A stretch of DNA of 60,078 nucleotides, counting the filler, from Dugesia japonica (taxonomy: Eukaryota), in assembly GCA_001938525.1 (NCBI GenBank). It is 4 parts of 4 records of this genome, joined end to end, with 100 filler letters (N's around TTAATTAATTAA, not from the genome) between each part and the next. Parts side by side here need not be neighbours in the genome. Positions count along the whole stretch, not along the records: positions 48,445 to 60,078 come from MQRL01625844.1; 3 more parts are not named here. One strand, 5' to 3'. The position numbers and the translations under genes are program-made. Shown one piece after another: positions 13,636 through 60,078 of this stretch (positions are counted from its first letter, which is position 1; each line of letters opens with the position of its first letter). Under the pieces are notes generated by a model. The model was not told the DNA's origin and did no database searches. It was given only the letters and a program-made list of their open reading frames with translations.

Positions 13636-13749
13636 NNNNNNNNNNNNNNNNNNNNNNNNNNNNNNNNNNNNNNNNNNNNNNNNNNNNNNNNNNNNNNNNN
13701 NNNNNNNNNNNNNNNNNNNNNNNNNNNNNNNNNNNNNNNNNNNNNNNCT

Positions 13750-15480: not shown

Positions 15481-15960
15481 GAAAAGAAATTAATATAATT
15501 ACCTTGAATTAAATTGCACGTTATATTTATCATATTAATATTACAAATATCAACTTTATTTTCTGAATAATATTTTCCTGGTAAGTATTTTTTAGGTGAA
15601 AAACCTAAGATTGTATGAAGAAAAGGTTCTTTATTAAACTTAATTGTATGCTTTGTTGTTAAATTACATTTTGATGTTGAATGATCTGGTGTAACTTCAA
15701 TGCCATGATATTTTAATTTATTAGAGATTTCTTCAACTTCATAAGCTCCAAGTTCTATTGTTACATTTGCGAAGCCAGTGTTTTGTTCTGTTTTTAAAAT
15801 AAAAATATTATTTTTAGTATTAACATTAAAAATTATATTATAACAACTAAAACATAGTAAACTCATTTCATAGTCAGAATATAATTCTAACAGAAATCTT
15901 AAATCAACTTATAAATTAGATTCTTGACCAACAAATAAAAATTGATAAGACGTTTTATTT
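15480..15960 (-). pseudogene. Polinton/adintovirus-type minor capsid (penton)-like protein, truncated
   Basis: YNIIFNV..NN.F...IELGAYEVEEI...ILGF...YSENKVDICNINMINITCNLIQG pattern, recognised by eye, among other Polinton fragments. Confidence 0.55.
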
Positions 15961-15989
15961 AGTATTATCATAAGGAAAATTATTTATTT

Positions 15990-16420
15990 TTATAAACATT
16001 ATATTTATCTTTGGCAATTAATTCTTGATCTAATAATTCTTGACAAACAAATTTAATTTCTTTGCGTAAATTATTATGATCAGCTTTTACTGCTGAAATT
16101 AATAATTTTAATCGTTCAAATAAAGTTACTGGATTATTTAAGATTAACTCTTTTAAATCTTCACATTTAATAATATTTTTTTGTATTTCTTTTTCAACAG
16201 AAACTATTTTTTAATAATAACCTCAATAAAGTTGTTATAATAATTACAATTAGTAGGAACTTTAATATTTAATTCATTTAAATTAATATCAATTGCTTCG
16301 AGATCATTACTTCTTTTTCCTAAAATTAAATTCATTACTTCTTCAGAATAAGAAATTAGTTCTTTAGATAAAACGTATTTCTTTCTATTTTCTTCAAATA
16401 AATACATCGATGGATCTTTG
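15990..16420 (-). pseudogene. Polinton conserved hypothetical ORF
   Basis: C-terminal NPVTLFERLKLLISAVKADHNNLRKEI...QELLDQELI resembles the 'L.ERL.LL...AGN...EI' motif of Polinton ORFs and sits directly upstream of the penton-like ORF. Confidence 0.5.
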
Positions 16421-16497
16421 CTATATTTGAATTATGCAACGTAATCAACAAATAACCTCTGACGTAATTACGTCATCGAGTATTCAGAAACAATATT

Positions 16498-20260: not shown

Positions 20261-20620
20261 GTGTGATGGTTTTGGTCAATTTGGTTCAGTTTTTACTATT
20301 TGGTAAATTATTTACTCACAGTGCTCAGAGTTTGGTCGACAATTCTCAGATTTTGGATGATTCGATCAATTATTTCCTAAGCATGGATAAACTTAGTCAA
20401 TGATTTAGTCACGGATGTCGGTTTTAAATGGTTTTGGCTGATTATGATCAATTATTTACTCACTAAGGTTAGTTTTTAGGGGATTTCAGTCAATTATTTC
20501 TTCGGGAATGATTGATTTTTGGATGATTTGGTTAAATATTTTGTAGGATTGGTTAATTTGAGTCGAAAATTTTCACAGATATTCGTGTGAACAATCAAAT
20601 TTGTTGAAATTTTCAACTTT
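20260..20620. repeat. Degenerate 21-bp-unit minisatellite (same family as 50735-52020)
   Basis: Recurring TTTGGTCAATT-like units; CAGTGCTCAGAGTT(T/C)GGT is shared with about 51848. Confidence 0.65.
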
Positions 20621-23752: not shown

Positions 23753-25014
23753 GTGAAATACGTTAGGACATGTTATCACGAGTATCACACAATTACGTGC
23801 ATTACAGTTATTGTTCTTTCCGAGACCACCAATAACTTTCAAGTGAAATGCTTATACTGTTTGACAGTATTCTGGGGTGGTAATTGTATCCGAGCATACA
23901 TGGGTATTAAAATTGCAACATGCGTCGCCAAATGTGAAAAGGTGCCAGTGAAAATTCTGGAATGCTTCAAACCAGCAGATGCTGTTAAACAAGCTGAAAA
24001 ACAAGAAAAAGAACGAAAAATAAATCTAGATAAGGTGGTTGCATCCCCATCGTTGTCTTCATTGTCCTCAAAGCAACTGAAACTATACGATATATTCAAA
24101 AGTACTGAGAAATATTATTATCTCAGAATTATTGGGGCAAAGTATGCACCATTTATGATATCCCCAGAAATTCAGCATTTTCAGGAACATTGGTACACAA
24201 AGGTATCAAAGATGAGACGAATAGCATCGGAAGTTTTGGGATATGATAGCATGATAGTGATATTCTATAGATGACATGAACTAGGCGATGATGAATATCT
24301 TTTCGATTGTGGATGCATTCCAAATAGTTTGAATCATGTGTTTGCCTACAAAAAGTTATTAGACGATAGTGAAACTATCGAATTTCAAATAAAAATTATG
24401 ACGATGATGATGATTTCGAAGATGCAATAGAAGAGCCACAAATGTTTAAAAGTGAACCTGTAGTGTCTCTCGCTGATAGTACACCAACCAATCCATATCA
24501 GGATAATGGAAACATTAAATCAGAAAATACAATGACAATAACAAAGGTCTGTATGAAATCTCCAAGGAATTAGTAAACCTTACAAGGCGAACTCATAATA
24601 ATACCGAACCAAGAAAATCGTTGCAGGATTACTAAAAGATCTATTCCCATTATTGCAACTTGAAGACTTAGAAAGTGAATATATTAAACAACTCAGTGTG
24701 GAATTACGTAAAACTCATCCGAGCGTTGTACAAAGATACGGAAATGAAACATTTTGTGACAATAAAATTTTAAATGAATTAGTCAAAGATGAAATTAATT
24801 CACAGGTAATTATTACTGGTTTAACATATTTTACAGATTGGTACTTATGTGTTTGTGAAACCTGATGAAATACAAATTTATTTAAATGAAGCATCTATCG
24901 AAATAAATAAATATTTTCTAAATTGGATTAAAAACAATCGTGGTTGGAATATCGTAAAAAATGAAGAAATAATGCCAAGACCAAGCGCTACTAGAGAAAA
25001 TCCATTGTTATATT
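23753..25014 (+). pseudogene. Unknown pre-Env domain(s) X
   Basis: Long, mostly open frames. Motif KVSKMR...SMIVI...DEYLFDCGCIP (motif core 24290-24322) has a homologue at 47626-47658. Confidence 0.6.
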
Positions 25015-26836
25015 CTACCTGGCTGATATTTAAGATCATTATTTTAATTTGCAAACTTAATCAAACTGCGTCAATTACGGCATATGATTGTTCTCAAACA
25101 GAAATGGGAAAATTTATTCACTAATGGATGTGGAACGATGTCTTGAAGCATACTCGATAAAACTTTATACAAATGAAAATCTAAAATAATTTGTATATCA
25201 GGAATCAGGATTCAGACGAGTAAAAGTAAAGGAATGTATTGTGAAACGAACTAATTTTGTATATTATTGTGGTAAATGCAGTCATACTTCAATCATAAAA
25301 ATGACTTATATTCCAAAACTAGTCGAAATTACTCCTGAAAACTGTTTAGTGGCTTTTCAAACCAATGAAATAAAAATCAGCCCTGAGATCAAACTAAAAG
25401 CCAAACTGAATCATGCAATAAAAGAGACTATTGTTGTAAAGGGAATGCTAGAGAAAAGTGGTGATTTCACTGGTGAATCATTCAAAATATCTGAGAAAAT
25501 AGTTGACAAAGTAATAATTATTGAGGAATATGTTGCTGAATTACGATAATTTAATGGAATATTTGATGATAACAAAGAGAAACAAACCAGTTGCCAAACA
25601 GGAGAATCAATTCTTGTTTATGATGTTAAATATAATCAATGTAATTTATGACATCTTAAAACAATGGTCTTTAACGAAATTTATGGTGAAAAAATAGAAG
25701 ATAGACCAGATAAAAGTATGACAGTAAATCAACCAAAAAAGGGAATCCGAATTATACCTCTCTAAATGAGAAGAACTCAATAGTGGTGGTATCAACGTCC
25801 ACAGATGATGCAATGAGATTTATTAGAAAAGAAAAATGTATTAAATGTGGAAGTGAAATATATGGAACAAACTATAAAGGAATCTATGTTTCAAAGAAAA
25901 GTAGAAAAGCTAAAATTTGAATTCATATTGAAGATATAAAATTAATAAACTATTTTAATATCAAAATTGACTATCTATTTCATCATGGACAATATATAGC
26001 GGAAACAATGTACAGAGAAATGATACTCAATGATTGTAAACTGAAAAATGAAATTCTACGAAATAGAATAATTATGGTAATAACTAACCCAAATCTAGTG
26101 GCACCTATGCTTATATCGGAAAACGGAGTCTTTGTAAGAATTATGAGAGATGTATTGTTTAGTTATAAATGTAAAGAAGTTCCAATAAAACTCGCCAAGT
26201 ATGAAAAGTGTACAAATGAGTTGCTTGTTAATGTAAACGGAAAAATTGAGATTTATGGAACCTATTACTAGAATATTACTTGAGAAGGTGTTAAACCAAA
26301 ACACTTACAGTGTAATAGACCATTATCACCTTTATATCGTTTAACTGCAGAAACATGGATTGCCTTACCAGATCACAGAGAGGTTAAAACCCCAGAAAAC
26401 CTGAGGCTACAAAGCTGGAGTATTTAATTAATTTTACATTTCTAAATAATATTGCTCAGAGCTGAATTTATTCAAGTGAAGACATTGAAGAAGCCAGACG
26501 AAATCTATTATATCCATCTAAAAAGGAAAGAGTTATTATGGAACTAGTCGATACAATACTACCAAGAGGTACATGAAAAGTAAATTATGAATATTTATTA
26601 ACACTTGTCCACTATAAAAAGGCTACTCACAACACTATGAAAGAAGATTTGTGTTCTTTGGACAAGCCTGCGCAGGATTAATTGAAATCTATATTATGAT
26701 AACAATAGCTAGAGTGATCGCAGCACAAATTTTATCAACGTATCGATTATATGCAATAGTAGGACTATCGTGGAAATAAATAATTGGATGTGTACCTTTT
26801 CTAGCCAAATTCTTTATTATTGATCATCAATATAGA
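25015..26836 (+). pseudogene. env: Chuvirus-like / herpes gB-type (class III) envelope glycoprotein
   Basis: Signal-like WLIFKIIILICKL, then ITAYDC (25080), YYCGKCSHTS, EITPENC, KIDYLFHH, MYREMILNDC...NPNLVAP, YKCKEV, CTNEL, MEPITRIL, and membrane region FFGQACAGLIEIYIMITIARVI...LYAIVGLSW. Confidence 0.8.
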
Positions 26837-33134: not shown

Positions 33135-33234
33135 NNNNNNNNNNNNNNNNNNNNNNNNNNNNNNNNNNNNNNNNNNNNTTAATTAATTAANNNNNNNNNN
33201 NNNNNNNNNNNNNNNNNNNNNNNNNNNNNNNNNN
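33135..33234. other. Artificial scaffold spacer N44-TTAATTAATTAA-N44
   Basis: Same 100-nt linker. Confidence 0.95.
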
Positions 33235-34940
33235 AAACCGATTTCATTACACGGCGGTAATGAATCTAAATAGGCTAATGAATCGGGATATCAAAAAGAA
33301 CGGGGTACCGATACAATCAATTTGGTGCAAAGATTGCCTAAATGGGTTCAGGGACAACAATGCTTACGACAAGCATCAACCAATTTGCGAGCGAATACAA
33401 ACCGGCACAACANNNNNNNNNNNNNNNNNNNNNNNNNNNNNNNNNNNNNNNNNNNNNNNNNNNNNNNNNNNNNNNNNNNNNNTAATATACGCTGATTTTG
33501 AATCAGTACTCCCGGCGAATGACCGTCATTTCCAAAAACATTTACCGATTTCGGCTGAACTTTGGTTGGTAAATAATTTTACCAACGTAAGCAAATACAG
33601 CCAGTTTGTTGGAAATGACTGTATCTATGAATTTTTAAAGGCAACAGAGAATATAAGCAAAAATGTGGTGTATCCATATTACGATCGAAATGGTAAAAAG
33701 AAAATCAGGATTACACCAGCTCAGGAAGAGGAATTTAATAGGAGCACAAATTGTTATTCATGTAAAAAAGAAGATAATCGACCCAGTTCGTGATCACGAT
33801 CATTTCACAGGTCGATATAAAGGAGCAGCCTGTTCGAAATGTAATTTAAGCAGAAGATTATTAATACAACTACCGGTTGTATTTCATAATTTGAAAGGAT
33901 ATGATCTTCATCATATTCTTAAATACGNNNNNNNNNNNNNNNNNNNNNNNNNNNNNNNNNNNNNNNNNNNNNNNNNNNNNNNNNNNNNNNNNNNNNNNNN
34001 NNNNNNNNNNNNNNNNNNNNNNNNNNNNNNNNNNNNNNNNNNNNNNNNNNNNNNNNNNNNNNNNNNNNNNNNNNNNNNNNNNNNNNNNNNNNNNNNNNNN
34101 NNNNNNNNNNNNNNNNNNNNNNNNNNCGTTATAATGTCAAAGGGTATTTTTCCATATAATCTTGCTACAAGTTTGCAAGTGTTGGAAAATACCACAACAA
34201 TGCCACCAAGATGGGAGGTAGTTAGTGAGCAAGATTATGAGAAGGCGTTAGAAATGTGGACAATAACAGGATGCAACAATTTATTAGATTACANNNNNNN
34301 NNNNNNNNNNNNNNNNNNNNNNNNNNNNNNNNNNNNNNNNNNNACTTTTTTCAACAGTTCAGGGCTTAATCGATAGCAAATAATAATTTGGATCCATTAA
34401 ATTTCTTTGGAATCCCGGGTATGAGTTGGGCATCAGCATTGATGTCGTTAAAGGAGCCCATTGAACTGTTGATGGACAATGGTATACCTTTTTTGAAGGC
34501 GGTATACGAGGTGGGCTAACATTTGTAAATAAANATTATGTTGCCTCCAATGCGAACACGGAATTACTGTATATAGATATCAACAATCTATTTGAATGGG
34601 CTCTAAGTCAAAAATTACCGTATGCTGATTTGGAGTGGGTGTATAGTGGATTAGACGAAATTATTGAAGAATGTAGATCAGCAGACTTCGAGTCTCTAGC
34701 ATATAGATACACATTGGAGGTGGACATGGTTATTCCGGCTGAGATATAAGATAAGTTGAACGATTTACCTGTAGTAGCAGAACATCAAACTCCTCCAGGG
34801 TCAAAAGTGAAGAAATTATTATTGACTCATAACCCGAAATTTAATTATGTNNNNNNNNNNNNGTTGCTGCAAATGTACATAAGATTAGGAGTACAGGTAA
34901 CATCGGTTCATAGGGCGGTTAAGTTTAAACAAGCTTGGAT
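33235..34940 (+). pseudogene. Polinton pPolB (near-contiguous, gapped and frameshifted)
   Basis: IYADFES, VRDHDHFTGRYKGAACSKCNL, PVVFHNLKGYDLH, KGIFPY, GIPGMSW, GIRGG, YIDINNLF*WALSQKLP, LEVD, KKLLLT, VHRAVKFKQ. Confidence 0.92.
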
Positions 34941-36593
34941 TCTGATCGTGATGCTCTGTTCCTGCTGCTCTGTACACATCAAAGTTTATCATTACTGGTA
35001 ATAAATTTATTGTTATTAAAATAATAATATTAATTATAATATAAATTTAGTTTTCAATGATTAGACTGCTCCGTCTATTTGTACACCTACAATTCCTGCT
35101 CCGTCAGTTCATGCAGTGACAATTCCTGCTCAATTAGACATGAAAACTGTTCCGTATAGGTAATAAATTATTTTAATTATAAATTTTATGAAACAATTTA
35201 GTATTTTAGGCTATCATCAATAAAGAAATTATGAAGGGGAAGAAAAAGAATAAGAAAAGAATAAGAAAATTAAGAGAAAAGAAAAAAACAATGTGAACGA
35301 ATATCAGCCCTCTTCAGGGCTACAATTGATGATTGAAAAGTTATGTTTTTTTTATTAGTTAATTTTATTCAATTTTAGTTTTTTGTTAATTTTATTGATT
35401 TTTAGTTTAAGTTTTATTAGATTTATAAGTTTTTTATTAGATTTTAGTTTTAGTTAAATTTAGTAAAGTTTTATTTATTTTAACAGATTTTGTTTTTTAT
35501 ATATATTTTATAATAAGTTTTATTTAATAACTTGTTGTTGTTCTTATTTTATTTAATTAATTTTAAACATAACATTAAAACATGAACATGCGCACACATA
35601 CACATATAAACATACAGTAAAACATTAGGAATGCAAATAAAATAAAGACAAAACAATAGGGATGCAATGAAACAAAGCAACTATTATAAACATATTGAAA
35701 AAATAAATAAATATATAATAAATCTAGATACTATTATAGATAGATTATAATAATTTCTATTACTTCCGGAGACTTGCAATTTAGATCCATGTTGAGAGCT
35801 TTTGTTACTTTAATCTTGTCTTCTTCAANNNNNNNNNNNNNNNNNNNNNNNNNNNNNNNNNNNNNNNNNNNNNNNNNNNNNNNNNNNNNNNNNNNNNNNN
35901 NNNNNNNNNNNNNNNNNNNNNNNNNNNNNNNNNNNNNNNNNNNNNNNNNNNNNNNNNNNNNNNNNNNNNNNNNNNNNNNNNNNNNNNNNNNNNNNNNNNN
36001 NNNNNNNNNNNNNNNNNNNNNNNNNNNNNNNNNNNNNNNNNNNNNNNNNNNNNNNNNNNNNNNNNNNNNNNNNNNNNNNNNNNNNNNNNNNNNNATAAAT
36101 TCTTGAGAGTGATTGCTTTCTTCAATTTACACTGGTTCAAATATTTCTCATAATTTGTTCTTAAATGCCTGTTTTTTCTTGCAAAAATGGATGGGATACT
36201 TACATTTTCCTTGTGTAATTCTTCTTCTTTATTATCCTTGTTGCAAATTTCGATTTTCTTGATCATTTCTTTTTGTTTTGTTGATAAATTGTTTAACGTC
36301 ATTTCGCGAAAATAATGTTTTGATTACTACAAATTAGTCTTTATATATTGAATCATCTGTGTATGTGTATGTTCTTTGTTTACACGATTGGTTGTTTGCA
36401 GTATTAGTTGTTCTTTGTTTTCATACGTATATGATTGGTTATATTTACATTTCTTATTTTATTGGATAACAAAANNNNNNNNNNNNNNNNNNNNNNNNNN
36501 NNNNNNNNNNNNNNNNNNNNNNNNTATTTTATTGGATAACAAAATAGTACAAATTGCTAAAAATAATTTAATAATTTCATTATTTTCTAAGAA

Positions 36594-37053: not shown

Positions 37054-37261
37054 TGTCAGTAATAAAAAGAAGAAAATGGATGTTTAAATGTAATTTCGTT
37101 TGTTTAAATGTTTGATGTAATATTTTATTAATGTCGATAAAATTTTTATAACTTGATTTTGTTTATTTTCTTTACTTTTAAAAAAAATTTCAAAAAAAAA
37201 TTTTTAAAAAAAATTTTAAAAAAAATTTAAAAATAAAAATTTTTAAAAAAAAATTTTTAAA

Positions 37262-37636
37262 AAAAAATGATCAAGAAAAATTTTCTACTCTCCCCGGGGG
37301 GATGAGTCAGCCTGATCTAGTCATTTTTTCTTTGTTTAGTTGTACTTAGAAAATTTTTTGAAAAAGTATGACTCATGATCTAGAAAAATTTTCCTTACCC
37401 GGGGGAGAGTGATCTAGAAAAACGATGAGTCATGATCTAGAAAATGTATGAGTCATGCTCTTTGTTTTCGTATCGCGATGACTCATCCCTATGACTCATT
37501 GTCTTTGTTCTAGTCATCGATGACTCCTCGTTATGAGTCATACTTATGAGACAACGTTTTTGTCTTAGTCATCGATCGTCTTTGTTATAAATATTCTTTG
37601 TCTAGAGGGGGATATCTAGTGCGCTACTATCTACCT
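37262..37636 (-). repeat. Putative Polinton terminal inverted repeat with an AP-1 site cluster
   Basis: Ends GCGCTACTATCTACCT, whose reverse complement resembles the AGTAGATAGATAGTGGCGCAC termini. Seven TGASTCA sites; lies downstream of pPolB. Confidence 0.6.
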
Positions 37637-37899
37637 ANNNNNNNNNNNNNNNNNNNNNNNNNNNNNNNNNNNNNNNNNNNNNNNNNNNNNNNNNNNNNNN
37701 NNNNNNNNNNNNNNNNNNNNNNNNNNNNNNNNNNNNNNNNNNNNNNNNNNNNNNNNNNNNNNNNNNNNNNNNNNNNNNNNNNNNNNNNNNNNAATTTTTT
37801 ATTAATTAGCACAAAACTGTGCTAATTTATTTGAAAAAAAACTGGAATAATTTGATCCATAATCATTATTATCTATTTTTTGGACTATGTCCGTTATCG

Positions 37900-39662: not shown

Positions 39663-39717
<55 letters not shown>

Positions 39718-39733
39718 TAAAAATAATAATAAT
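39663..39733. repeat. (AAT)n microsatellite
   Basis: Directly visible. Confidence 0.95.
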
Positions 39734-42104
39734 ATTGGGGTATCACCTGAGTTGTCATGGCGACTGGGGAAATATCAGCCCTCATGGGACCCCTCCAAGA
39801 ATTTATCTAATGCCCTTTATTAGGTCTTCGGTATAGAGTCGTTGACTCCCAACACTTACTTGAGAGCTCACTCGTACACTTTTAGTTTGGGTTCATTATT
39901 TTTTCCTTATTATACCATTATAAATCAACAATATTTTAGAATTAATTATTTATATTTATCTACACGAAATTAAGAGCACCCGTGTCTAACCACTGGGTAG
40001 GCTCTACAGGGGCGAATCCAAAAGCTTCTTCGTCATCCTCAGTATTCCAGCGAGTCCATGTCTCTCGCTCAAGACGGTGGGAAAAATCGGCAATTTATTG
40101 TTCCAGAAATCAATTTTTGCGGGTGAGTATCTGGCTGGATTGTTTCGCTATTTCATCTTGTTTCTTCACAATGATATCCAATTTTTTAATTAACTGGTTA
40201 CGCTGAGTGAGATGCCTTAATAGCGCGCGCTCATTTTGGCGTTTGATATGTCTTTCCAGTAATAAGTTTTGAATTAAGCGGCGACACCTACGAAGACTGA
40301 TAAGAAGACGAATTCGTGGCACAAAAAACGAATTAGAATTAGGAGATAGCTCAATCACTATTAATATTTAATTAGCAGTAGAATCCTTAAAATAAACATA
40401 AACGAACGACAAGTAAGTCAATATAAAGCGAAAAGATTTTTAATTACAATATTAAATGAATATAAGAGGTCATGGCCGTGAGGTTTGTGTGCCCTTATCA
40501 ACCATTAATGATTCGAGCGGCATGGCATTCTGTAAGGTAAGAATAACGGCGACCAGTTTATTCTCACGGTCATAGAAGGACCGGATAATTTCTGCGAACG
40601 ATTCGATTTGACTTTTCTATAACCGTTTCTGGTGATAGATTGCCTCGGCCTCTTTTTGGAATGCTATATACTTGGCTTTATAGCGTTTTACCTTACCGTC
40701 GGCTGTTCCTGTATCTGCCTTCCAACGACGGTTGGCGAGGCGACACAGATCCCACGTCATTTTGGTGTCATTGCTCGTTTCTCTTACCTTTTTGGTTGGA
40801 GCGGACAATCGATTTAGTGATTGATGCACTGAAAAAAAAAGACATCAATAGTTACAGAAAGGCAAAGATAAAATAATGACCTAAACTCAAAATATTATTA
40901 TCCATGATAAGATAAATTAAAACCGATACCTAAAGACATCATTTACAACAAGAATACTTTTTATTAGTATTTACAAAAAGTCGCATAGTCAATTAAGACG
41001 CAGTAACATTATTGGTGGTGGTGTCAGAGTTTTCGGAACTGCCACCAGCTTTAGTATTCCTTACATTCCATAAATTGTCCAAAACGAAGGCACTCAAATT
41101 GGGATAAGGGAGAAGATGCTCAGTTGTCATGCTCACGACCGATGGAAATTCTGCCCATTCGCTTACCGTATGGAAATCCTCATTATAGATGGGTGGGAAA
41201 GCCGTGGCAGTATGTAACACTTCTCAAGCTCGATTGGGGCCGGACCAATCATAATAGACCTGGCGCTCAGTGACATCCAAGTACCTCTCTTCTTCTATTT
41301 CGATGGTAGTCAGGTTCGATCTGTCTACCAGAACCCCTGCCTTTCTGTCATAGGGATTCTTATACCGCTTAAAAACAGAACGGCCGGTTCTACGGTCGAG
41401 GAGAAAATTTCCTACTTGTATTCCACTAAAAAAATAGTGAAATGCTAAACGAATATTTATTGGTGATGATAATTTTAATCAATTGGGTCTAGGCATTAAA
41501 AGTTGATAGGTAGGAGATACAATACAGGTTTTAATTAACAACTATATTAATTCTACAGTACAAAGAAACAGTGATTAATATTCGAACATTGCTATAAAAT
41601 TAGTTTGATTCAATATCTAAGTCTACTATCAATGGTAGGGGATAAAATTCCAGGAAACATAGGAGGTCTAACTCATCCAGGTAGAGAACTATATCGGAAA
41701 AGAGTAAATGACCAATTAATTGTTTGCAGCGCACGGCTTTAACCGCAAGGCAGTTTTTAGTTCAGCAGACATAATCTAAAAAAAATAAAAATCATTGACC
41801 CGACTTACACCAGTAAATACATATGGTGTCATACTTTCGAACCCCTTAAGGAACATATACCCGATCCTACTTATTGTTATCGCCATGCGTCCATCAAAGA
41901 TAAAACCTAAAATTAGCCTAATGATGAGCATAACTATACGCCTGAATCGATAATAGAACCCTTAATCAAAAATTAAATAATAACCTCAGTGACCCTGTTG
42001 ATGGTAGTGACCATAATAAAGGTGATAGTCAAAATAATGATGATAATAATTATTTTAAATAATAAGAACAATAATGAAGATGACATTAATACACATGATT
42101 TTAT

Positions 42105-42130
42105 TGAATAATATTAATAATAATAATCAA

Positions 42131-42180
<50 letters not shown>

Positions 42181-42289: not shown

Positions 42290-44299
42290 CGATAGTGATA
42301 ATATCATTAACAAAACTAAAACCGTTAGAAACAGGATTATTAGCTAAAACTTGACATAATGAAATTTAATGATACAAATAACAAAATTGTCTCCAACCTA
42401 AAATTCATTATGACAAAAAATTCCACTTTAACCGGTTCAGGGACTTACAGTCTGTAAGTTGTAGGTGTCAATGCCATGATTAGACAAGGTAACGATTGAT
42501 GTTAAAGTAACAAGTTCATCTGAAAACAGGTACACCTATTATTTTCCTGTTTTCGTTTTAAACTTGATATTTCTCGGGTGTTATGACGAAGCAGAAACCA
42601 CGAGAACTAGTGACTGAAAATAATCCCATCTTCTAACAGAAGTGATTTCTGTTCAAATTGAGTCCCTCACGTGAGTAGGGCTTATTAATGATTTTGATGA
42701 TTCCCGAAATTCCACTAAATGAATATATATCCAATGATAAAGATAATGCAGAAAAACGATTTATTTGGAAGCACTTGTCCAGATACAATGATCAGCATTT
42801 TCTGGTTAAAACACTGGTGAACCGATTATCGAAAAAACAATTCTACACCTCATGATCGTAGTTCACAAAGATGTGATTATTTGTTAGATATTCGTGATAG
42901 TGAGACACTAATCGATATTGCGAGTGTGTTTGATGTTGAGTCAACAAATTCAAACTTTACTCTGCTCACTATACATATACTGTTCTTTGGATTGCCCATA
43001 CACACGGCTGTGACAATTGTCCTAATGTTGTTTTAACACATTATGAATTCTGGTAGATTCGTCTGAAGTCAAATCTGGTAGCTATTTGTGTGTGCATGGA
43101 TGGAATAACGAGGTAACTACTCAGGAATGGTATTATATCACGATGAATTCTTGCCTGACGGTAGGATAGATCAGCTTTCTCGATTATAGACTGACTTTCC
43201 AGGATTGACAGCTAGTTTGTTATTAGATGAGTATCGCCTCTAATTTAACACTCTTTATTATTTGTTAATCGGTTATCTCTATCCAACTATAATTTGAAGA
43301 AATCAGTTAATTTTATTATTTATAGAATTAAATGCATAATTAAAAATATCTACCATTCGGTCAATTATTTATTTAGCATTTTATTTAATCAAATTTAATT
43401 GTAAACATCCATAAGGTTTATTATTTAAGATAATTGAATTACACATTTAACACAAATAAAAGAATACACATTTCTTACTATTGTTAATCAGAACTCAGCA
43501 ATGGTTTTTTGTTCCACAATTCTTCTTTAATCGGTGAACTGGGTAAGATCCAAAGAAATTCTGAGATATATTTTTGGTGCTTTATCAAATAGTTAAATCA
43601 CGTCCATATTGAAAAGTTTTCATTACTCTTCCTGGTATTTTTCTTTCCACTAATGAAGTGATGTTTCCGAAATTTCGATATCAACGTAAAAATAGCTGTT
43701 TCTTGAAAAAAAGTGTAGTTTTGTTAGTGATTAAAAATTTGTAGTTGTTAGTTTTTTCTTCTAAATTTCGGGTGATTTTATACTATTTTCGATGCAACTC
43801 GGCACAATCTCCATAGGCCTTCTATTTGTGTTTTAAGTTCCTTGCTCATTCCCATTCCATTTTTTCTTACTAAAAGTCTCTGTGATTTTCCCGAGCAGAG
43901 ATATCTTCGAAAAACANNNNNNNNNNNNNNNNNNNNNNNNNNNNNNNNNNNNNNNNNNNNNNNNNNNNNNNNNNNNNNNNNNNNNNNNNNNNNNNNNNNN
44001 NNNNNGTTTTTTAATAATAAATTATTTTTCTTTTAATTAATATCCTTGATTAAAGATGATATTCCATCTATCCGATATCCTCTTTCTTCTTTTTGGCTTT
44101 TTCTTCCGATATTATTAATTATAGTAATTGTAAGTTTTAGCCACGTGGTGGTTAGTTTTAATTAGCTTTCTTTCGGTCATTTACTTTATTGTTTTATGAT
44201 TTGGGCCCCTGCCTTTGATTTTCTTCTACAACCGGGTGTTTCACCCCAAAAAATAATAATAATTTTTAGGTAATTTTTGAAATTCGTTAATTTTTTTAA

Positions 44300-45607
44300 A
44301 ATTTAATTCAATATCACAAAGTAAATATCACAAAGACTCCCATCTTTGAAGTTTTTTATATATATATTTTATCATTTAAATATCACAATTACTCCCTTTT
44401 TTGAAGTTTTTAATAGTTATATTTTATCATGTAAATATCCCAAATATAGGAAATCCCCATGCAAACTATTAAGACTGCTCCATCCCATGCAAAATATCAA
44501 GACTGTCGGATATCTTGAATTAATATAGAGACTGTCCATACCATGTAAAATATAGATTCTGACCATGCCATTGCATAAATACCATGTAAAATATAGAGAC
44601 CTCGCAAAATATCGAGACAGCCCCATCTCATACATAAATATAAAATCTGCTCAAAAAAAATTTAATGAAAGTAAAAAATTTCTCCCAAAAAGAAATTTTA
44701 AATTACCCGCCAAAATTTTTTTAAATTTCTCTTCAAAAAATTCAAAAATTACTAAGATTACACTCTTCCCTGTTCAAAAAATATTAAAAACAATCCTTCC
44801 CTGTTCAAAAATACTCAAAAAATACTCAAAAATACATCATTTTTACAAAAATACCATTAGTTTCTATAAATTTATCATTTTAAGCAAAATACAGCATTTT
44901 ACAGAAAATAAAGATTTCAAAAGATTATTACTTCATACACACCAGGCAGAAAATTTCAAATAAATCTTATAAAATCTGATAATTAATTTTCTTTCTACCC
45001 ATACTACTCTCCCCCTCCTAAAAATTTTTTTACACACTTATACCACTTAAAAATCAACCAATCAAATTCAAGCACTTAAAATCAAAAATCAAAGCACATT
45101 CGACAAACAACATCTTCCCAATTACCTATCCAACAAACCATTAACCACTAAAATCCATCAAACCCATACAAACCTACACCCTTTAAGAAATCACTCACGA
45201 TAACAAATATAATTGTGCCCGTGAGCCACTACCCTTCTAGGAAAAACCATCCATTCGACCTCATAAGTCCTTTTGACAATTTATAACCGAATTTTTATCC
45301 AAACACAACCAAATTTTAAAAACCACGAAAAAATTTATTCCAAGATCTCCAGCTTTCCCTCGAGTTCAATTTCCTTCTTACACTCACACACATATACAAT
45401 TTAAACTTGAGCTACTTTTTAAAAACCCACTTAGAAACCCAAATACACAAATTTTTAAAATCAAAAAAATCTGATCCTATCAAAACATTTTTGATCCTAA
45501 AAATCTTAGAAAAAAACCCCCTAAATTGTAGCACAATCTTACGTTTTACCGAGCCCCTTCTTGGGGTATCCCCTCAAATTGTGCCCGTGCGCCACTATCT
45601 ATCTACT
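44300..45607 (-). mobile_element. Right end/TIR of a Polinton-like element
   Basis: Ends AATTGTGCCCGTGCGCCACTATCTATCTACT at 45607 and is the inverted homologue of 59844-60078. Internal copy of the subterminal motif at 45211; truncates env2. Inner boundary uncertain. Confidence 0.7.
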
Positions 45608-46745
45608 AACAACATTGGGGTAACAAGATTCGGATTCACTATCGATATTGCTAATCGATTTTGATTATTTCTGTACTCCATTTGCACTCATTAAAGACGA
45701 CTTCATGATAAATTTCCTCCATTTGCTATAACAAACTATGATAGATGAAATCAACCTTATTATTTGCATAGTTTATTATTTTTATATCATTAGTATTTAA
45801 TTGTGTAGATTTAGGGATATTTATTTTTCCCAAATAATTTTTTTCATAAACAAGATAGTCACATTTCGTTGTGGAAACTTTCTTGATAAGTCGAATTGCA
45901 TCCTTGGTGTCGGTTGATACTAATACAATTGGAGTACTCTCTTCTCCGATTCTCTCTTTGCTGCCTACTTGCTTTTTATTTAACTTTTTTACTTTTTGAT
46001 TGTCCATTAATCTGGATCTTTTTACTTCTGTTTTTTCTCTAGTTCTCTTTTTTTGCGTCAAAGACAGCTTTTTTAATAATGTCAATTCACAAAAATCGCG
46101 TCTTTCATCATTTAGAAGTGTAGCGAACCCCCTTCGACAGCTAGAAAACCGTGCATTGCAATGGGGATTTCCCACCATATTTCCTGTTTCCACTTCGAAT
46201 ATGCCTTCATATTCTCTCAATTTGACTGTTTAATTCTCTAAATCAACTACTCGATTTACCAAATTATTTTGCTTTGTTTTTGATCGCCAGTACAATCACA
46301 GTCTTCATCAATTGTTCCTCCTCTAATAACTGCTTCTGCCAGTATCTTTCTGAATTCTGCTGCTAACGTCACTTCAATATCGAATTTTAATTTTCCTGTT
46401 CGAAAAGCGTCTAAACTATCATCTGGTAATATGCTTACTAGCTTTGATATAAGCTTAGCTGATAATATAGCTGCATAACTATGCGTTCCACAATATTATT
46501 TGAACACCACTTTTTGGACTCTAAAATCTCTCTCACCTTAGTTCTGTAATACTTTTACTTGATAGATATAATATAAAGATGGCTTGATAATATCTAATCT
46601 ATCTGTATAAGCTTCATTGCAATCTACTACATCTACTAATGAATATATACCTGATGGGATAGGATTCTTACAATCATATGCTAACAAACTCGGTTTGATT
46701 TATTAATCCTAACATCATCAAAATCAATAATATGATTTGAGTTGA
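45608..46745 (-). pseudogene. env: Second chuvirus-like/gB-type glycoprotein (env2), 3' truncated
   Basis: QIILLILMMLG signal, LLAYDCKNP...SLVDVVDCNEAY, YCGTHSY...KLVSILPDD, STDTKDAIRLIKK...KC, NNKVDFIYH, VNPNLVTPML; collinear with the env at 25015. Confidence 0.8.
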
Positions 46746-48344: not shown

Positions 48345-48444
48345 NNNNNNNNNNNNNNNNNNNNNNNNNNNNNNNNNNNNNNNNNNNNTTAATTAATTAA
48401 NNNNNNNNNNNNNNNNNNNNNNNNNNNNNNNNNNNNNNNNNNNN
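48345..48444. other. Artificial scaffold spacer N44-TTAATTAATTAA-N44
   Basis: Same 100-nt linker. Confidence 0.95.
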
Positions 48445-50075
48445 AAATTTATTCTCTTCAGTAATTGGTAGTCTTTTATGGATGATGGTCTCATAATTAT
48501 TCAGATGTTCAGATGTTCTTTTCTTTATTTTTATTATTAATATCACAGTTATGAAATGATTTGTTAGATATAATAAGAATTTATTTCTTGATTCTGTTTT
48601 GTTATTTTTTGTTTATTAGCTTTTGTTTCCAAAATTGATTATATATTATTAATATTGATATAATGCTTGTTGATATCATCATGGTTGTTAATTTTTCATA
48701 TTGTTTCTTGATTCCAGTTCTTTTTGCCAGTTTCTCAACTTTTAACTTAGTAATTGAATCTCCATTTTTATTAATTTTTATAGTAATTTCCTTTTTAGTG
48801 TTTTCAATAATATCAGTCATTACATCATGATTCTCTAATTTCATTTTTGTAATCAAATCTTCTTTTCCATTGGCTCCAATACTTTTTTCGTAGTCATAAT
48901 TGTTGTCAGTGTTGCAGTGCTAAGTTTTAATTCCAGCAGTAAAAGTTTCATTTTCGTTAATAGCATCATAATGCTCAGTTTTCATTTTAATAAAAGAATC
49001 TCTGTTAAAAAAACGTTTTGTTTCGTCTGCACTTGTTATAATTTTAGAGTTCTCATTCTTGTCTTTATTGCTTTCATTTTAAGTATTCTGTTTTATGTCC
49101 TTTGTTAAATTTTATTGGCAGAGAGTATCTAAGAAATTATTTAAATTAACATCAAAATTTGGNNNNNNNNNNNNNNNNNNNNNNNNNNNNNNNNNNNNNN
49201 NNNNNNNNNNNNNNNNNNNNNNNNNNNNNNNNNNNNNTATCTCTTTCACATTAATTGAATCAAAAATAAATCTATTTAACTTGTCATTTTGCTAACAAAT
49301 CTTCTTATTACCATCTGTTTCCAATTTTTGAATATTTATTCTCATAGTTTTTATTTCACATCGTGTTTTCATCCTTTGAATTTCAATTTTTAGGAAATCC
49401 ATTTCAGCCTTTCTATCATATTCTATGTCACATGTTTTGAGAAATGTATGTTTCTTAATCCAGCATGCTTCTTTAAAAGATGCACAATCTCTACTGTCAT
49501 TACGTTGAATGTATTTGTTGTTACCCATTATATTCTTATTACAAAAATGAGTTATTATCTTTTTCTTTTTCGGCTGCTTTCATTACAAGGATTGCTATAA
49601 TCTTGGTCGAAAGCAACAAGGTCTCTATTCTCATTAATTTTGTTATTGTTCTTATTGTAACAATATAATTANGATTATTATTATCATAAAAAATTAAATA
49701 TTTTCAAAATTACGAAAATAAACTAAGGCGTAAATCAAAAAAGTTTTAAAAAAATGTTTCTTTTTAAAATTTTTATTAAAGTAACAAAATCTTTTTCAAA
49801 AAACATTTTTTATTTTTTCAAAATTTTCGAATTTATCTTCTTCAGGAATTGTCGATAAATTTCATATTCGTATAATCGTATACATTATTATTATTTTTAA
49901 ATCTTTTATTATTATTACTTGTGTAGTAATTTCTGTGTTTTTCTCTACAATTATGGTTATTGTTTTCATTTTGATCTCTTCAATTATGTTGAGCATTTTA
50001 AGTGTCAATACTGATTTGTATCTTGAACTTTAATTTTATACTTTGCTTCTATTTAGTATCAGTAAATGGATAGTA

Positions 50076-50464
50076 AGTAGATAGATAGGAGGACACGAGG
50101 ACAAAGTAGGTCAAAGGGGGGACCCCCCGTTGCCATGGTAGCCAATGTAGGTCAAGGTCGTTTCAATGGCAACCGCCTTAGCAACGGTATCTAGGTTATT
50201 TGGTTACCATGGCAACCGTCCTTATCGATGGAAACTAGGTCAAGGTCGTTTCCAAAAAAGTTGCTATGGAAACGACCTTGACCTACATTGGTTGCCAGGG
50301 AAACGACCTTGGCCTACATTGGTTGCCATGGTAACGGGGGGTCCCCCCTTTGACCTACTTTGTNNNNNNNNNNNNNNNNNNNNNNNNNNNNNNNNNNNNN
50401 NNNNNNNNNNNNNGGGGTCCCCCCTTTGACCTACTTTGTCCTCGTGTCCTCCTATCTATCTACT
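50076..50464. mobile_element. Non-autonomous mini-Polinton-like element (MITE), about 313 bp after removing the gap overlap
   Basis: Perfect TIR of about 50 bp (about 90 bp imperfect), AGTAGATAGATAGG...CCTATCTATCTACT, flanked by ATAGTA at 50070-50075 and 50465-50470. AG..CT ends with a 6-bp TSD are Polinton hallmarks. Confidence 0.8.
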
Positions 50465-50734
50465 ATAGTAGCTTCCCGCACCACGCACACATTCACCAAG
50501 CATCCCCATAGTGACGTAATGAAATTTAATCCTAATACATTTAGTTAGGAATTTAAAAATTGCATCATTAGGTAACTTAATTTGGGGTGATTTTTCCCTG
50601 TGCATTTAGTTGGAAAAATTTTTTGCACACAAATGATGTCATACGATTAATTTCATCATCGAGATTTTTACGTAATAGGATTAATTGGGATGATTTTTTC
50701 ACTGTGTATTTAGTTGGAAAATTTTTGTAGGTTT

Positions 50735-52020
50735 TTAAGGTTCAGGTGAATTCGGTCTGAAATTTTCTCGGTGAGATCGAATGTGGTCAATTTTTGACTT
50801 GTTTAGATGAAATTGATCTAATTTTTCCTCGGGATTGGTAATTTTTGGGTGAATTGAGTCCAATTTTTCATCGGTTTTGGTCAGTTTGGGTACTTTTTGG
50901 GCGATTCTGTCAATTTTTGGTTGGTTCAGGTGAATTTGGTTGACAATTTCCATGGCGAGGTCGAATATAACCAATTTTTTCGCTGGTTCAGGTGAATTTG
51001 TACCAATATTTTCTCGGGATTACTCGGTTTGTGTAATTTCTGTGTGAATTTGATCGAATATTTCCTCGGGAATGGTTAATTTGGTCTACAATTGGCTCGG
51101 TGAGGTTAATTAAGGTATATTTTTGGATGGTTCAAGTGAATTTGCTTGATAATTTGTTCGCTTAGATTGAATGAGGTCAATTTTTGATTGGTTCAGGTAA
51201 ATTTGGTGGAATATTTCCTCGAGTTTGAGCAGTTTGGGTAAAGTTGGTTGGGTTTAGGTAATTTTTGGGTGATTCGGTTAAATATTTCCATTGTATTAGT
51301 AATTTTTGAGTGATTGGGTTGAATTCTTTTTAGAGAATAGTAAAGTTGGTTCGGTTTTGAACAACTTAGTCAATTATTTACTCGGTTTAGTCAATATTGG
51401 TTAATTATNTCCTTGGGAATGGAAAGTATAGGTAATTTTTGTAATTCAGTAAAGATTTTCCTCGGAATGGAAAAATTTGGGTGATTTTTGGGTGGATTTG
51501 GTAAATTATTTCGTCGGGTTTGGTCAAATTGGGTCATTTTGGATAATTTGGTCAATTATTAACTCAGTGCTCAGATTTTGGTTGATAGTGTTCAGAGATT
51601 GCTTGACATTGCTCAGATTTTGGTTGATAGTGCTTAGAGTTTGGATGGTTATGGTCCATTATTCATTCATAAGGATAATTTTTCGATGAATCGGGGTAGC
51701 AATTTCTTTGGTAATGGTAATTTGGTCAATTATTTCATTTAAATTAGTTAATCTCATATGATAAAAATACAAGTCGCAGGCTGACAGTGGTCAGAAATTG
51801 GTTCACAATGGTCAGAGATTGGTCGACAGAGCTCAAATTTTAGTTGACAGTGCTCAGAGTTCGGTTGACAGTGCTCAGACTTTGGATGGTTATGGTGAAT
51901 TATTTACTCACAAGGCTAATTTTTCAATGATTTGGGGTAATAATTTTGTTGGTAATGGTGATTTGGTCAATTATTTTATTTAAATTAGTTAATCTCATAT
52001 GATGACAATACAAGTCGTTC
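50735..52020. repeat. Degenerate 21-bp-unit minisatellite with a 240-bp higher-order duplication
   Basis: GGTTCAGGTGAATTTG and TTGGTCAATT units; the block ending TACAAGTCG repeats at 51776 and 52016. Confidence 0.7.
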
Positions 52021-52469
52021 CCGGTTAAATTAAAAATTAGTTGACCTTAATTAAAAAAATGTTAATCAATTTTATGTTTTATAAAAAACTTTAATGTTGA
52101 TTGAGCATTTCATCGATAAAGTTGATTATAATTAATTAGGACAATTATTGGTTATTTTTTAGTATATTCAGCCAGTTTTCAATGGTTTTAGTTGAATATT
52201 TTCTCAATGAGATCAAATTTGATCAATTTTTAGTCAGTTACGGCCTATTTGTTAAGGAATTTCTTAATAATGATCTATTTACTAAGGAATTTCATTGGTC
52301 AAATTTAAATTTTCAACAATTAATTAGTTGCTCCTATTGATTTTTAACATTTATAGTTATAAGTTGATAAAAAAAAGTAAATAAATAACAAATAATAGTT
52401 AATTATTTTCATACATTATTTTCAATAATAGTTTGTTTTCTTTCCATATTATTACATTAACTCATCCGG

Positions 52470-53545
52470 GTAGCACAGTCAAGCTATTTCTCGTGATTGG
52501 AAAATCAAAATAGCCAAGATCATTTAAAGGAACAGAAATAAAGAATCTTCCTGTTGACTATTATAATCAAAAAGGAGCATGAATGGATAGAAGGATCTTT
52601 GAACATTGGTTTAAAAATAAATGGGTCCCAGAAATTCGAGTTTTTTTAAAAAGTAAAGGATTGCCGCAGAAGACTGTTCTGTTATTAGATAATGCTCCTT
52701 GTCATCCAAATGAAAGCATACTGAAAACAGACGACGGTCTTATAACTGCAAAATTTTTACCACCTAATGTAACATCTTTAAGTCAACCTATGGATCAAGG
52801 AGTTATCTATTTAATGAAACGCCATTATCNCAATGATCTCCTTAGAAGCTTTTGCATAGAGAATGATGATTTAATGAATTTATGGAAAAAAATGACAATG
52901 TTAGATGCAATATATGGAGCTGTTAAATCTTGGAACAAAATTAAGCCAATAACCCTAGTTCGATCGTGGTTGAAAATNNNNNNNNNNNNNNNNNNNNNNN
53001 NNNNNNNNNNNNNNNNNNNNNNNNNNNTGGAACAAAATTAAGCCAATAACCCTAGTTCGATCGTGGTTGAAAATTTTGTCAAACGTAGAAAGTAATGTTT
53101 TGGACTCTATAGAACCTTAGATATATAACATTTCAAAATTATGTGAATTAATGAAAATTTTAAATGCTTTTGAATATGCTGATGACCAAAATATTAAGAA
53201 ATGGATGGAATTTGATTTATCTGATCCAGGATTCCAGATACAGAGTGACACGGATATTATTTCAAATCTAATTTCAAATCCGAATACATCGATCAATGAA
53301 ACTTCGACTATAACAATAAAATATTTTTAAGAAAAAGTTGAGATGATATTAGATAGTCATTGAGAAAGTCACTTAAACAAACTAAAATTACCGATTTTTT
53401 AATAAAGCATTGAATATATTTTCATTGTTTTTGTATCATACTAGTATTTATTATTTTTGTTTTATTATTTTGTGAATTATTCGTGGTTTTCGATTATCCG
53501 TGCCGGCCCTCCCCATCATTAGCCAGGATAATCGGGAGTTTACCG
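52470..53545 (+). mobile_element. pogo/Tigger DDE_1 transposon, 3' part with TIR
   Basis: [41 protein letters not shown]; 3' end GGATAATCGGGAGTTTACCG followed by TA. Confidence 0.9.
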
Positions 53546-54832: not shown

Positions 54833-55730
54833 TTAGGTTGATGAAATATAAANGCAGGTTTTTAAATCTCAACTTTAAATTAGTACAACTCAGCTTATAA
54901 ACAAGTTTCTTAATCGAAATAAAAACCACTAGAATCAACGCATTTTCGTCAATGTTACAAGTTTATTTATACTGGCAGTATAGAATTCAAGAGTTCTTGT
55001 AGCGATGAAGTTGGTGAAGGCGTTGTGGGAATTGTCTTGGTTTTTGAAGCATTTTACTCGAAAAAAGTTGTTCATATGCTTGAAAAAGTGATAGTCAGTG
55101 GACGAGAGGTCCGGCAAATATGGCGGATGAGGCAGAGTCTCGTAGTCCAATTCGTGCAACTTCTGCAGGGTTAGTTGTGCGACGTGCGGCCGAGCNNNNN
55201 NNNNNNNNNNNNNNNNNNNNNNNNNNNNNNNNNNNNNNNNNNNNNNNNNNNNNNNNNNNNNNNNNNCTTTCGTCAATTTGTTGATAATACTTCTCTGCTG
55301 TAATCGTTTTGCCCGGATTCCAAAAGCTGTTATGGATAAGACTGGCTGCAGACCACCAAACAATCCCCATAACCTTCTTTTGGCGAAATGCCGACTTCGG
55401 AAAGTGCTGTGGTTGTTGATCGCGGTTCAACCATTGCACCGAACGTCACCGGTTGTCATATTATAATTCGTTCCAGAAAAGGATCGTTTTTGTTGCGCAA
55501 AACGAGCGAAGATGCAACTTCATAATGCCGATTTTTTTCTAATCGTTCAATTCGTGTGGAACCTACTTATCGAGCTTTTTTGTCTTTCCAATTCGCTTTA
55601 AATGACAAACGACGGTTGATTGGTCAACGTTGAGCTCTTCAGTAACGTATCGTGGGGTTTTGCGAGAATTAATTTCGATTAACTGCTTCAATTTCTCATT
55701 ATCAATGGCTGATGGACGTCTGGCATAAGA
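54833..55730 (-). mobile_element. mariner (DD34D) transposon, 5' truncated
   Basis: *VPHEL, YDNR, ARPHVA, HPPYLPDLSSTDYHFF; TA followed by TIR TTAGGTTG at 54831-54840. Confidence 0.92.
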
Positions 55731-56261: not shown

Positions 56262-56610
56262 CTATGATTCTGGATCATGGAGCAATTCCAGCGGCCTATC
56301 CATTGTCTTGAGAGCACTTAACCAGTTCAATCCCGGTAAGGAANNNNNNNNNNNNNNNNNNNNNNNNNNNNNNNNNNNNNNNNNNNNNNNNNNNNNNNNN
56401 NNNNNNNNNNCCCAGAAATAAATGTCTAGCTTCTTGTAATGAAACATATACTCTAGTAAATTACTACTTCCATATTCGACCCATGCCAACGTTGCAATTT
56501 CGTATTCAAACTCTATGATTTCTGGCCATTTTGGAGATACACATGTTTCATTAATCAGCATATCATAGGACGTTGCAAACTTGTAAGGAAATATAACTTT
56601 ACTCTGGTGT
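56262..56610 (-). pseudogene. Polinton pPolB fragment
   Basis: FPYKFATSY...NLLEYMFHYKKLDI...SLPGLNWLSALKTMDRPLELL, homologous to 34130-34470. Confidence 0.8.
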
Positions 56611-58705
56611 CCATTTTGCGGATATTCTGATAAGACGGAAGATAACGCTGTCGGTAAATAAATGTTAGAATTAGTGTTTTATCATTTAATACTTTATGTG
56701 GCTATTAACGATAGTGCTTTATCGGTGCTATCATTTAAAATCGAGTATGAAAAAAAACAGGCTTATATTACTGACTAAAAGCAATTTATGATATTTTACA
56801 TACGAGTGATTAAGACGAGATACCGCGAAATCTCGTTGGACTCAGGAAAAATTACCGTAACACAGAGGTGTCACAAACGTTTCAGTATTTCAGGTTACCC
56901 TTAAGACAAACAATGATGTAGATATTAATGCGAGAGTGAAGAGTATGGAGTAAATATTTAAATCGAAACGTATTCAGTATATATTAATAGCAATGTGTTT
57001 TACTCGCTTCCTGTATAAATCCTTTCCATATATCTACTTTTTATAAGAGCATACAAAGAAATATAGTAAAACAATTAATAATTACATAAATTTTGTTGAT
57101 ATAAAATTAACTAGTTCAAAATGCGAATCAGAAATAATTACAAGAATCGTAACATTCAATCAGTCTTTCAATATTTATGATTAAATTGAAATTAGAATGA
57201 TGAAATTTATCGATGATAATTAATATTTATACATAAATGCAAAAATTCGTATTATAACGATTTTTTAAAATATTTTTCATAGAATTGAAATCACGGTAGA
57301 TAAATCTTTATTAGTTTGAACAATGATTACCAACCTTTTGGTCTTCGCGGAACTCTAAAAATCAGCCTTTTCCATTATGAACCGCGACAAGCGGCATTGC
57401 TGTCTGTCAATTATCATAAATTTTTAGCTTGCGCAGTTCAGTCAGTCTGGATTTGTAACAAAGTTTTTTTATGTGTTAATTATGAAAAATAAGGAAGTTA
57501 CGTAGCCCAAATTTTTNTATTTTTGTATAGAAAATTAAAAATATGAGAAGAAAAAATTCCACCATCACTTTTTTGCAGTTTGTCATGTTATTAATAAATT
57601 TTTAATCAAATTATTTTTTATTTAAATTATTTTTTAAAAACTTTCAATTTTGCTGCCCGACCAATATATCAGCACTCAATAATATATGCAGTTATACCTC
57701 GTATAATGCGTATCCAAAATCTGAAATTTGGAAACAAATATAAATAAAGCTTAGTTAAGTTACTTCTGTATAAACAGCGCGTTACACGGGGTTCTAGATA
57801 CGCGTTATATGGAGGTTAAAAAAAAGCAAAATTCGTACATTTATTTGAATATAACACCATTAGGTAACTACGGTACTTAAGCATGAATAATATCTCAAAT
57901 ATGTCAAATTTGCATTACTACTGTCTTAACAGATGACAAATGTTGAAATAATATAATACATATCTATTAATCTGAATTATACAAAAATTGTGTATAACTT
58001 ACTTAAATTCTTCTTTTGTTAAATTTTTAAATATTTGCAAATTATCGTCACGAATTAGCCGAAAAACCGCTGAAATATGATGGTTCTCAAGAACTCCTCT
58101 ATCATTATACAACAAGGCTAATTTCGAACTAAATAAAGTTATAAATAATATATAGATTTAAATTAATATTTTTTATTATTGAACTACATTTTTTACAATT
58201 AAGGATTTAAAATTTAAAACTCTACATACTCAATAATAACTTGATAAAAATAACTCAACAATTGAAATTTAATCAGAAGGTGATTGAAGCAACACTGTTA
58301 AAAGTTTACTAAGTTTTAAATGTAATTTAATTAGATTATATATTTAAAAATTTTTAATTTTTTTTTATTAAAATTTATTTTAAATTCGTTTAAGTTAAAT
58401 TCGTTATATTTCTGCATGCAAAATTTTAGAAATTTTAGCAGGAAAGAAAGGTAATATTTTTACAAAATATTTTTTGATATTTTTTATCTTATTTTTTATC
58501 TTAATATAGTAACTCTTTATAATAATATAACCAAATAATAAAAACAGCTAATTTGATCTGATTAAATATGGAAAAATTTTAAAATAAAATAATTTAAATT
58601 ATTCCTCTAAATTATATTTTTTAAAGAACCGAAATTCACATTTAAATTTTCACTGACAGATTTCAAATTTCTGCCATCTTCGTACACTTTAATTTTGCAT
58701 TTTTC

Positions 58706-59843: not shown

Positions 59844-60078
59844 AATAGATAGATAGTGGCACACGGGCACAATTTTTAATGAGTTATCGCGCACCCCACC
59901 GGGAGGCTCGGAAACACATTGCGCTTGAGCTGCGTTTTTTTTACATGATTTTTGTGCTCGTTTTTTTTCTTAAGATTTTTGGGATCAAAAAAGTTTTGAT
60001 CGGATTAAATTTTTTTTAATCGGATCAGTTTTTTTATCCTGGGTGTGTGTTTATTTTTAAATTTAAAATTTTGTGTGT
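59844..60078 (+). mobile_element. Left terminus of a Polinton-like element (runs off the window)
   Basis: AATAGATAGATAGTGGCACACGGGCACAATTT matches the reverse complement of 45576-45607; 59960-60015 matches about 45460-45516. Confidence 0.7.

Follow-up and report, generated by a model that had tools for sequence, protein, structure and literature searches.

A gene-less 313-bp element with Polinton-type ends in Dugesia japonica and its probable mobilization in trans

The closest described systems are the Polintons/Mavericks. According to the accessible passages of the sources cited here, Polintons generate 6-bp TSDs, have AG ends and carry terminal repeats of 1-3 bp (PMC4196379, PMC6839031, PMC8097293). 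These short repeats are thought to serve protein-primed replication via a racket-like strand (PMC4196379, PMC6839031). In vertebrates, the autonomous elements measure 12.7-24.6 kb, have TIRs of 46-1,447 bp, reach a median of 8 copies and end in (AGT)2, (AG)3 or (AC)3A (PMC8097293). The movement of Polintons is a model inferred from sequence (PMC4196379), and the accessible part of PMC8097293 gives their particles as not observed.

Non-autonomous Polintons are already in print. Supplementary file 3 of PMC9341512 holds, among 7 Maverick rows of its accessible part, the zebrafish elements Polinton-1N1_DR, -2N1_DR and -4N1_DR (15,469, 11,092 and 10,436 bp), the first of which is also named in PMC9341505. 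The N in such names is the convention for non-autonomous elements (PMC10045372). The zebrafish Polinton N families filed under Maverick have copy numbers of 1,874-5,744, which are RepeatMasker-based and may count fragments (PMC9341512). One paper refers to Tlr1 as a non-autonomous Polinton (PMC5499653), Polinton-N1A_NV of Nematostella has a capsid gene (PMC11296320), and the accessible part of PMC3014272 gives no non-autonomous Polinton copies for Anolis. The three zebrafish elements that can be sized are thus of 10-15 kb, whereas the element that we describe here has 313 bp, so that they are 33-49 times longer. The accessible text of the literature searched, including PMC8504770, PMC8969392, PMC6431247 and bioRxiv 10.1101/2025.02.07.637071, contains no MITE-sized Polinton; Repbase and Dfam, which lie outside the scope of this search, may hold short families.

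Two other kinds of transposons invite comparison. The MITEs of cut-and-paste transposons (e.g. piggyMITE, in the accessible part of bioRxiv 10.1101/2025.02.07.637071) are, like our element, short, gene-less, TIR-bounded and present in high copy number, and they are moved in trans, as our element probably is, but the length of its TSD and its ends point to a Polinton integrase and not to a Tc1/mariner, PIF, hAT or piggyBac transposase. IS3EU/GingerRoot and Ginger2/TDD are integrase-related DDE transposons, and 6-bp TSDs are usual for IS3EU/GingerRoot, while those of Ginger2 are of 4-5 bp (PMC2836005). As far as the accessible passages describe them, IS3EU/GingerRoot, Ginger and IS481EU have TA, TG or TNT ends (PMC6839031, PMC10045372, PMC2836005). 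Given its AG..CT ends, we rejected an assignment of the element to IS3EU/GingerRoot, which ends TA..TA (sometimes TG..CA), and to Ginger1/Ginger2 or a solo LTR, which end TG..CA.

The DNA that we analysed (the window) is a stretch of 60,078 nucleotides, filler included, from the Dugesia japonica assembly GCA_001938525.1. It is AT-rich eukaryotic DNA, with a GC content of about 18-38% per kb, and nearly all of it is debris of transposons, interrupted by many N gaps. Three artificial linkers of identical sequence, in which a 12-nt all-frame stop spacer stands between 44 N on each side (14594-14693, 33135-33234 and 48345-48444), join separate pieces, and therefore neighbours across them are not true neighbours.

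As assembled, the element spans 50076-50464 (389 nt), of which 313 bp are left once 50 N and an overlap of 26 nt are removed (Table 1). In this collapsed form, two arms of 99 bp each enclose a core of 115 bp. The arms are identical at 93 of 99 positions, and the first of the six mismatches is found at position 57. In terms of TIR pairing, the outer 51 nt are 100% complementary and the inner 74 nt are so at 92%. The element is hairpin-shaped, and the complete palindrome announced in the earlier note has to be given up, because the arms cover only 198 of the 313 bp and include the six mismatches, and because repeat units make up the core. This core lacks mirror symmetry, and it contains a perfect 19-bp hairpin of its own (50236-50254 / 50267-50285). 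The DNA fold of the 288 N-free nucleotides reaches -109.8 kcal/mol (z = -16.4), and none of 200 shuffles was as stable. An 18-nt unit occurs four times in the element (at 50148 and 50236 on the plus strand, at 50285 and 50316 on the minus strand), as does a 14-bp near-palindrome, GTTNCYAKGGNAAC (at 50203, 50260, 50291 and 50322), and both are found in the core and in the arms. The 14-mer has no copy elsewhere in the window, and none was expected in 100 shuffles, a comparison that is partly circular since the pattern was taken from the element. In three of the four sequencing runs considered below, contigs contain a joint that leads from 50200 back to 50166 (35 nt), so that some other copies carry one extra 35-nt unit.

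Table 1. Coordinates of the element and of the related features in the window
Feature	Position	Strand	Remark
Left TSD, 6 bp	50070..50075	+	X2 contig stops at 50069, as an empty-site joint would be reported
Left arm, 99 bp	50076..50174	+	first 56 nt perfectly matched by right arm
Core, 115 bp	50175..50289	.	repeat units as in the arms
Four 14-bp near-palindromes and four 18-nt units	50203..50335	.	
Right arm, inner part	50290..50363	-	92% inner pair
Assembly placeholder, 50 N and 26 nt duplicated from 50338-50363	50364..50439	.	
Right arm, outer part, ending in CT	50440..50464	-	
Right TSD, 6 bp	50465..50470	+	
pPolB relic 1, broken	18933-20045	-	
pPolB relic 2, broken Polinton-type protein-primed DNA polymerase	33236..34944	+	enclosed on the right by end C
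pPolB relic 3, broken	56268-56846	-	
Sibling end C	37619..37637	-	identity of 15/19 with the mini end and of 17/19 with B1; an N gap has taken the last 2 nt
Sibling end B1, right end of a longer element	45579..45607	-	agrees with the mini end at 13/13 and 23/29
Sibling end B2, left end, element leaves the window	59844..59872	+	12/13 and 23/29 to the mini end; 27/29 to B1

On the two sides of the 50-N gap inside the right arm (50364-50413), the sequence overlaps exactly over 26 nt. Such overlaps are found at six of the eight window gaps of exactly 50 N (two of the six being microsatellites), against one of the 25 other gaps of at least 10 N, and we thus consider this gap to be a placeholder. 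Contigs of three runs contain a joint from 50345 to 50419, which skips 73 letters and leaves the intervening ones unseen, and this fits the collapse. The duplication of about 26 nt and the real length of about 313 bp proposed in the earlier note hold, as do several of its other statements. The element is GC-rich in AT-rich surroundings: its collapsed form has 50% GC, the kilobases on either side 23% and 34%. The 6-bp TSD is perfect: ATAGTA is found on both sides as an exact direct repeat that extends neither to 7 bp nor into the TIR, and the chance of such a 6-mer match, calculated from the window composition, is about 7-9e-4. The lack of coding capacity stands only in part, since a Pfam search of 66 N-free codons gave no match, but these belong to a frame that starts with ATG at 50166 and has 74 codons in the collapsed form. 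The high GC content most likely accounts for this frame.

The element ends in AG...CT, and these ends, together with the 6-bp TSD, match the published features of Polintons, as had been claimed before. The left end reads AG-TAG-ATAG-ATAG, that is, a 4-bp repeat after AGTAG, which makes a short terminal tandem repeat. The exact motifs (AGT)2, (AG)3 and (AC)3A find no match in this end, and the loose-end consensus of one sequencing run (X7) ends AGTAGTAG, with an agreement of 0.71 over four contigs, which comes near to the (AGT)2 of vertebrate Mavericks. The element has in common with autonomous Polintons/Mavericks the 6-bp TSD, the TIRs and the AG start, and its short terminal tandem repeat may correspond to theirs; the differences are that it is gene-less, about 50 times shorter and far above the vertebrate median of 8 in number, and that its end motif is not identical. 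An autonomous Polinton/Maverick (pPolB and integrase, 12-40 kb) is ruled out by the 313 bp and by the lack of a Pfam match. Other parses of the ends were also tried: a 7-bp TSD fails, and no end placement puts TA on both sides of the TIRs, as a Tc1/mariner MITE would have it. Neither Rfam nor the phage records gave a match to the element, and the 21-nt end has no match in viral contigs or in metagenome contigs. A 16-nt end pattern retrieved 15 viral loci, all of them single and internal and diverging right after the pattern, and these were rejected as chance.

Short, bounded by TIRs and a TSD, and with no protein of its own that matches Pfam, the element works like a MITE, and it has the TSD and the ends of a non-autonomous Polinton. 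Our main reading, to which we give a probability of roughly 0.7, is that it is a gene-less, MITE-sized parasite that is moved in trans by Polinton enzymes.

The abundance of the element can be seen in sequencing runs. We aligned the contigs of 4 of 13 listed runs (X1, X2, X8 and X7, from four samples and four studies) to positions 49700-50800 at 85% likeness, and the family is present in all four. The summed depth at the left end amounts to 1.2e5 in X1 (118,000), 1.0e5 in X2 (102,000), 8.5e4 in X8 and 5.2e4 in X7, whereas the left flank has 6-27 in one run and, over 49959-50069 in X1, 19-27. The ratio of left-end depth to the single-allele flank contigs is 7,500-18,000; as summed depth is not a copy number and every copy contributes two ends, this gives an order of magnitude. 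The family is a high-copy one, probably with thousands of copies. One X8 contig carries 15 foreign letters exactly before 50076, and therefore the same end boundary exists in another copy. Of the 12 positions listed within the element, 10 have most of their X1 depth on a letter other than that of the window (a count that cross-alignment of the repeat units may inflate), which makes the window copy a variant of the family. X7 contains the mini family with different variants and apparently a different end, and its contigs give no cover on 49959-49995, 50033-50069 and 50477-50800. This run, which has the species label of the others, may represent a lineage that has diverged, although contigs show presence, not absence. 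The right flank (50511-52200) is itself a high-copy, G/T-rich repeat, in which 51480-51950 is similar to 20268-20564, a stretch immediately upstream of the first pPolB relic, and it may be part of another Polinton-related end.

The distribution of this depth matters for another reading, which we find improbable: a long Polinton-type element would have lost its interior by recombination between repeats of its TIRs, the 313-bp form would not be mobile, and the depth would come from the TIRs of the long elements. Core and arms are built of the same units, the whole element is spanned by none of the contigs listed, and the known non-autonomous Polintons are long, all of which would suit such a remnant. 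However, the core is as deep as the end in X1, X2 and X8, with 85,000-143,000 in the bin 50218-50254 in these three runs (in X7, one core bin drops to 555), and several contigs reach from the left arm deep into the core. Moreover, the match between the two halves ends after 99 nt, which is not what two fused TIRs would show, and the median of 8 copies that the accessible part of PMC8097293 gives for vertebrate Mavericks argues against long elements as the source of the depth.

The parasite reading is further supported by what surrounds the element. Apart from the mini end itself, the window contains four sites that match it at 15/19 or better, against a mean of 0.11 in 100 simulations; three of them are listed in Table 1 as sibling ends, and the fourth, at 22953 (15/19), is probably a chance match and was set aside. 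B1 and B2 were ruled out as the two ends of one element, as they face away from each other and their outer 6-mers differ. Beyond the first ~29 bp, nothing is shared between the mini element and the B or C zones, and the helper is therefore probably a sister family, of which none was seen in the window. The zones of family B (44006-45607 and 59844-60078) are repeat-rich subterminal DNA with no Pfam hit, and B1 has an inner, degraded second copy of the end at ~45198-45241. End C closes, on the right, a TIR-like zone of about 450 bp that is rich in repeats (~37180-37638), and a short ORF lies directly inward of it. This end faces the truncated pPolB relic at 33236-34944, 2.7 kb away and with three N gaps in between, and this adjacency, for that is all it is, makes the best direct tie of the terminal motif to a Polinton.

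The relatives of the pPolB relics carry PF03175 and PF02945, and an Endonuclease VII-like domain is found in two of the three relics. An ORF located 3 kb downstream of the first relic and on the same strand (15468-15890, to 15908, minus) has viral clusters as its nearest ones in the Atlas, one set of which has Adeno_Penton_B in 18% of its members; recognition is low, and we take a penton/minor capsid-like protein here as a weak lead. In the search for pPolB relatives, 9 pattern matches in viral contigs and 113 in metagenome contigs were obtained and none was confirmed, and no intact helper was found in the window or in these two sets of contigs.

If the nearby Polinton relics were coincidental in a transposon-dense genome, the element could be the MITE of some other, unrecognised DDE transposon with 6-bp duplications and AG...CT ends. 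In favor of this, unrelated transposon debris abounds in the window, the DNA that follows the B ends is repeat-rich and without a Pfam hit, and no helper has been seen, but IS3EU/GingerRoot, Ginger and IS481EU have their TA, TG or TNT ends and end C faces a pPolB relic, and we hold this origin to be distinctly unlikely. Even less credible is an assembly fold-back or chimera at the scaffold gap, for which the 50-N placeholder inside the right arm and a fragmented assembly with artificial linkers could be invoked, but against which stand arms that differ at 6 of 99 sites, an exact TSD, an X1 contig that carries the left junction (24 nt into the element) and the presence of the family in 4/4 runs. 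Among the findings that, according to the earlier note, would speak against a Polinton parasite are a single copy, a fold-back and ends of another superfamily. The element is neither single-copy nor a fold-back, and its ends do not agree with those of other groups: we observe a summed depth near 10^5 at the left end in X1 and X2, contigs of the family in all four runs, and TA or TG ends in the other groups with 6-bp TSDs that we found described.

Two samples differ at this locus in an informative manner. In X1, which is possibly the source of the assembly, a contig covers 49825-50099 and represents the filled allele, with the left junction and 24 nt of the element (fewer than the bridge threshold of 31). 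In X2, a run of a different study, one contig extends over 49825-50069, where it differs once, and then continues for 76 further, unaligned letters. Joints are reported leftmost, so that with an empty site that has one 6-mer the left piece would end at 50069 and the alignment would go on from 50465. From 50465 to 50540 there are 76 nt, 50540 is the expected stop of a 31-mer unitig if the right-flank repeat begins at 50511, and X2 has 68 loose ends at this repeat start. These three numbers fit each other, and from this contig geometry, as opposed to the letters themselves, we infer that the X2 sample very likely carries an empty allele. The near-identical flanks would then mean either a recent insertion or a precise excision. 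With an empty site in another sample, we favor a recent insertion, and we regard the element as real, abundant and probably recently mobile.

As to the mechanism, knowledge of the family suggests that the retrovirus-like integrase of a full-size Polinton would recognise the terminal 21-29 bp in trans and would insert the element with a 6-bp staggered cut. Amplification would most likely follow the route proposed for Polintons, in which the excised strand would fold back through the arms into a racket and the protein-primed polymerase would start at the terminal repeat and copy the folded strand; the long arms and the terminal repeat would suit this route. Alternatively, the element could be moved by integrase only, through cut-and-paste and gap repair as ordinary MITEs are, and this is about as compatible with the data. 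The mobilization in trans by Polinton pPolB/integrase put forward in the earlier note is thus supported by the ends, the abundance and the position of end C facing a pPolB relic, while the share of pPolB, as opposed to integrase alone, is something that we infer.

The 14-bp palindromes probably are, if one is ready to speculate, protein-binding sites that help to pair or fire the ends, and they may bind a host factor. The 14-mer seems to resemble the RFX X-box. A tentative proposal, which we consider rather unlikely, goes further: the 313 bp would form a minimal Polinton replicon, in which two protein-primed origins and the integrase ends are joined by an X-box-like array, and which pPolB would copy extrachromosomally as a folded-back strand, with thousands of copies and movement still going on. 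If so, it would be the smallest cis-acting substrate of Polinton self-synthesis, it would suggest a host RFX-type factor as an origin helper, in the way in which NFI and Oct-1 serve the ends of adenovirus, and RFX-type sites would have been scattered through the genome.

Returning to the parasite reading, an abundant and apparently polymorphic natural element of 313 bp would delimit the smallest ends on which Polinton enzymes can act. Such an element would offer a small substrate for asking whether integrase alone is sufficient or whether the polymerase copies the element, and with it Polintons would join the transposons that give rise to true MITE bursts.

The debris that fills the window comprises pieces of Gypsy-type RT, RNase H and integrase, fragments of fusion glycoproteins and a DDE_1 transposase. 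Monjiviricetes-type fusion glycoprotein fragments lie beside Gypsy-type pol at 24800-26270 and 46259-46495, and correspond to envelope-bearing LTR elements. A relatively GC-rich segment of 2.5 kb (39663-42180) is located between AAT microsatellites and gave no Pfam hit in the scanned frames of at least 75 codons. Finally, broken transposase relics that are pogo/Tigger-like (DDE_1) and, by eye, mariner-like are found at 52583-53500 and 54935-55720.
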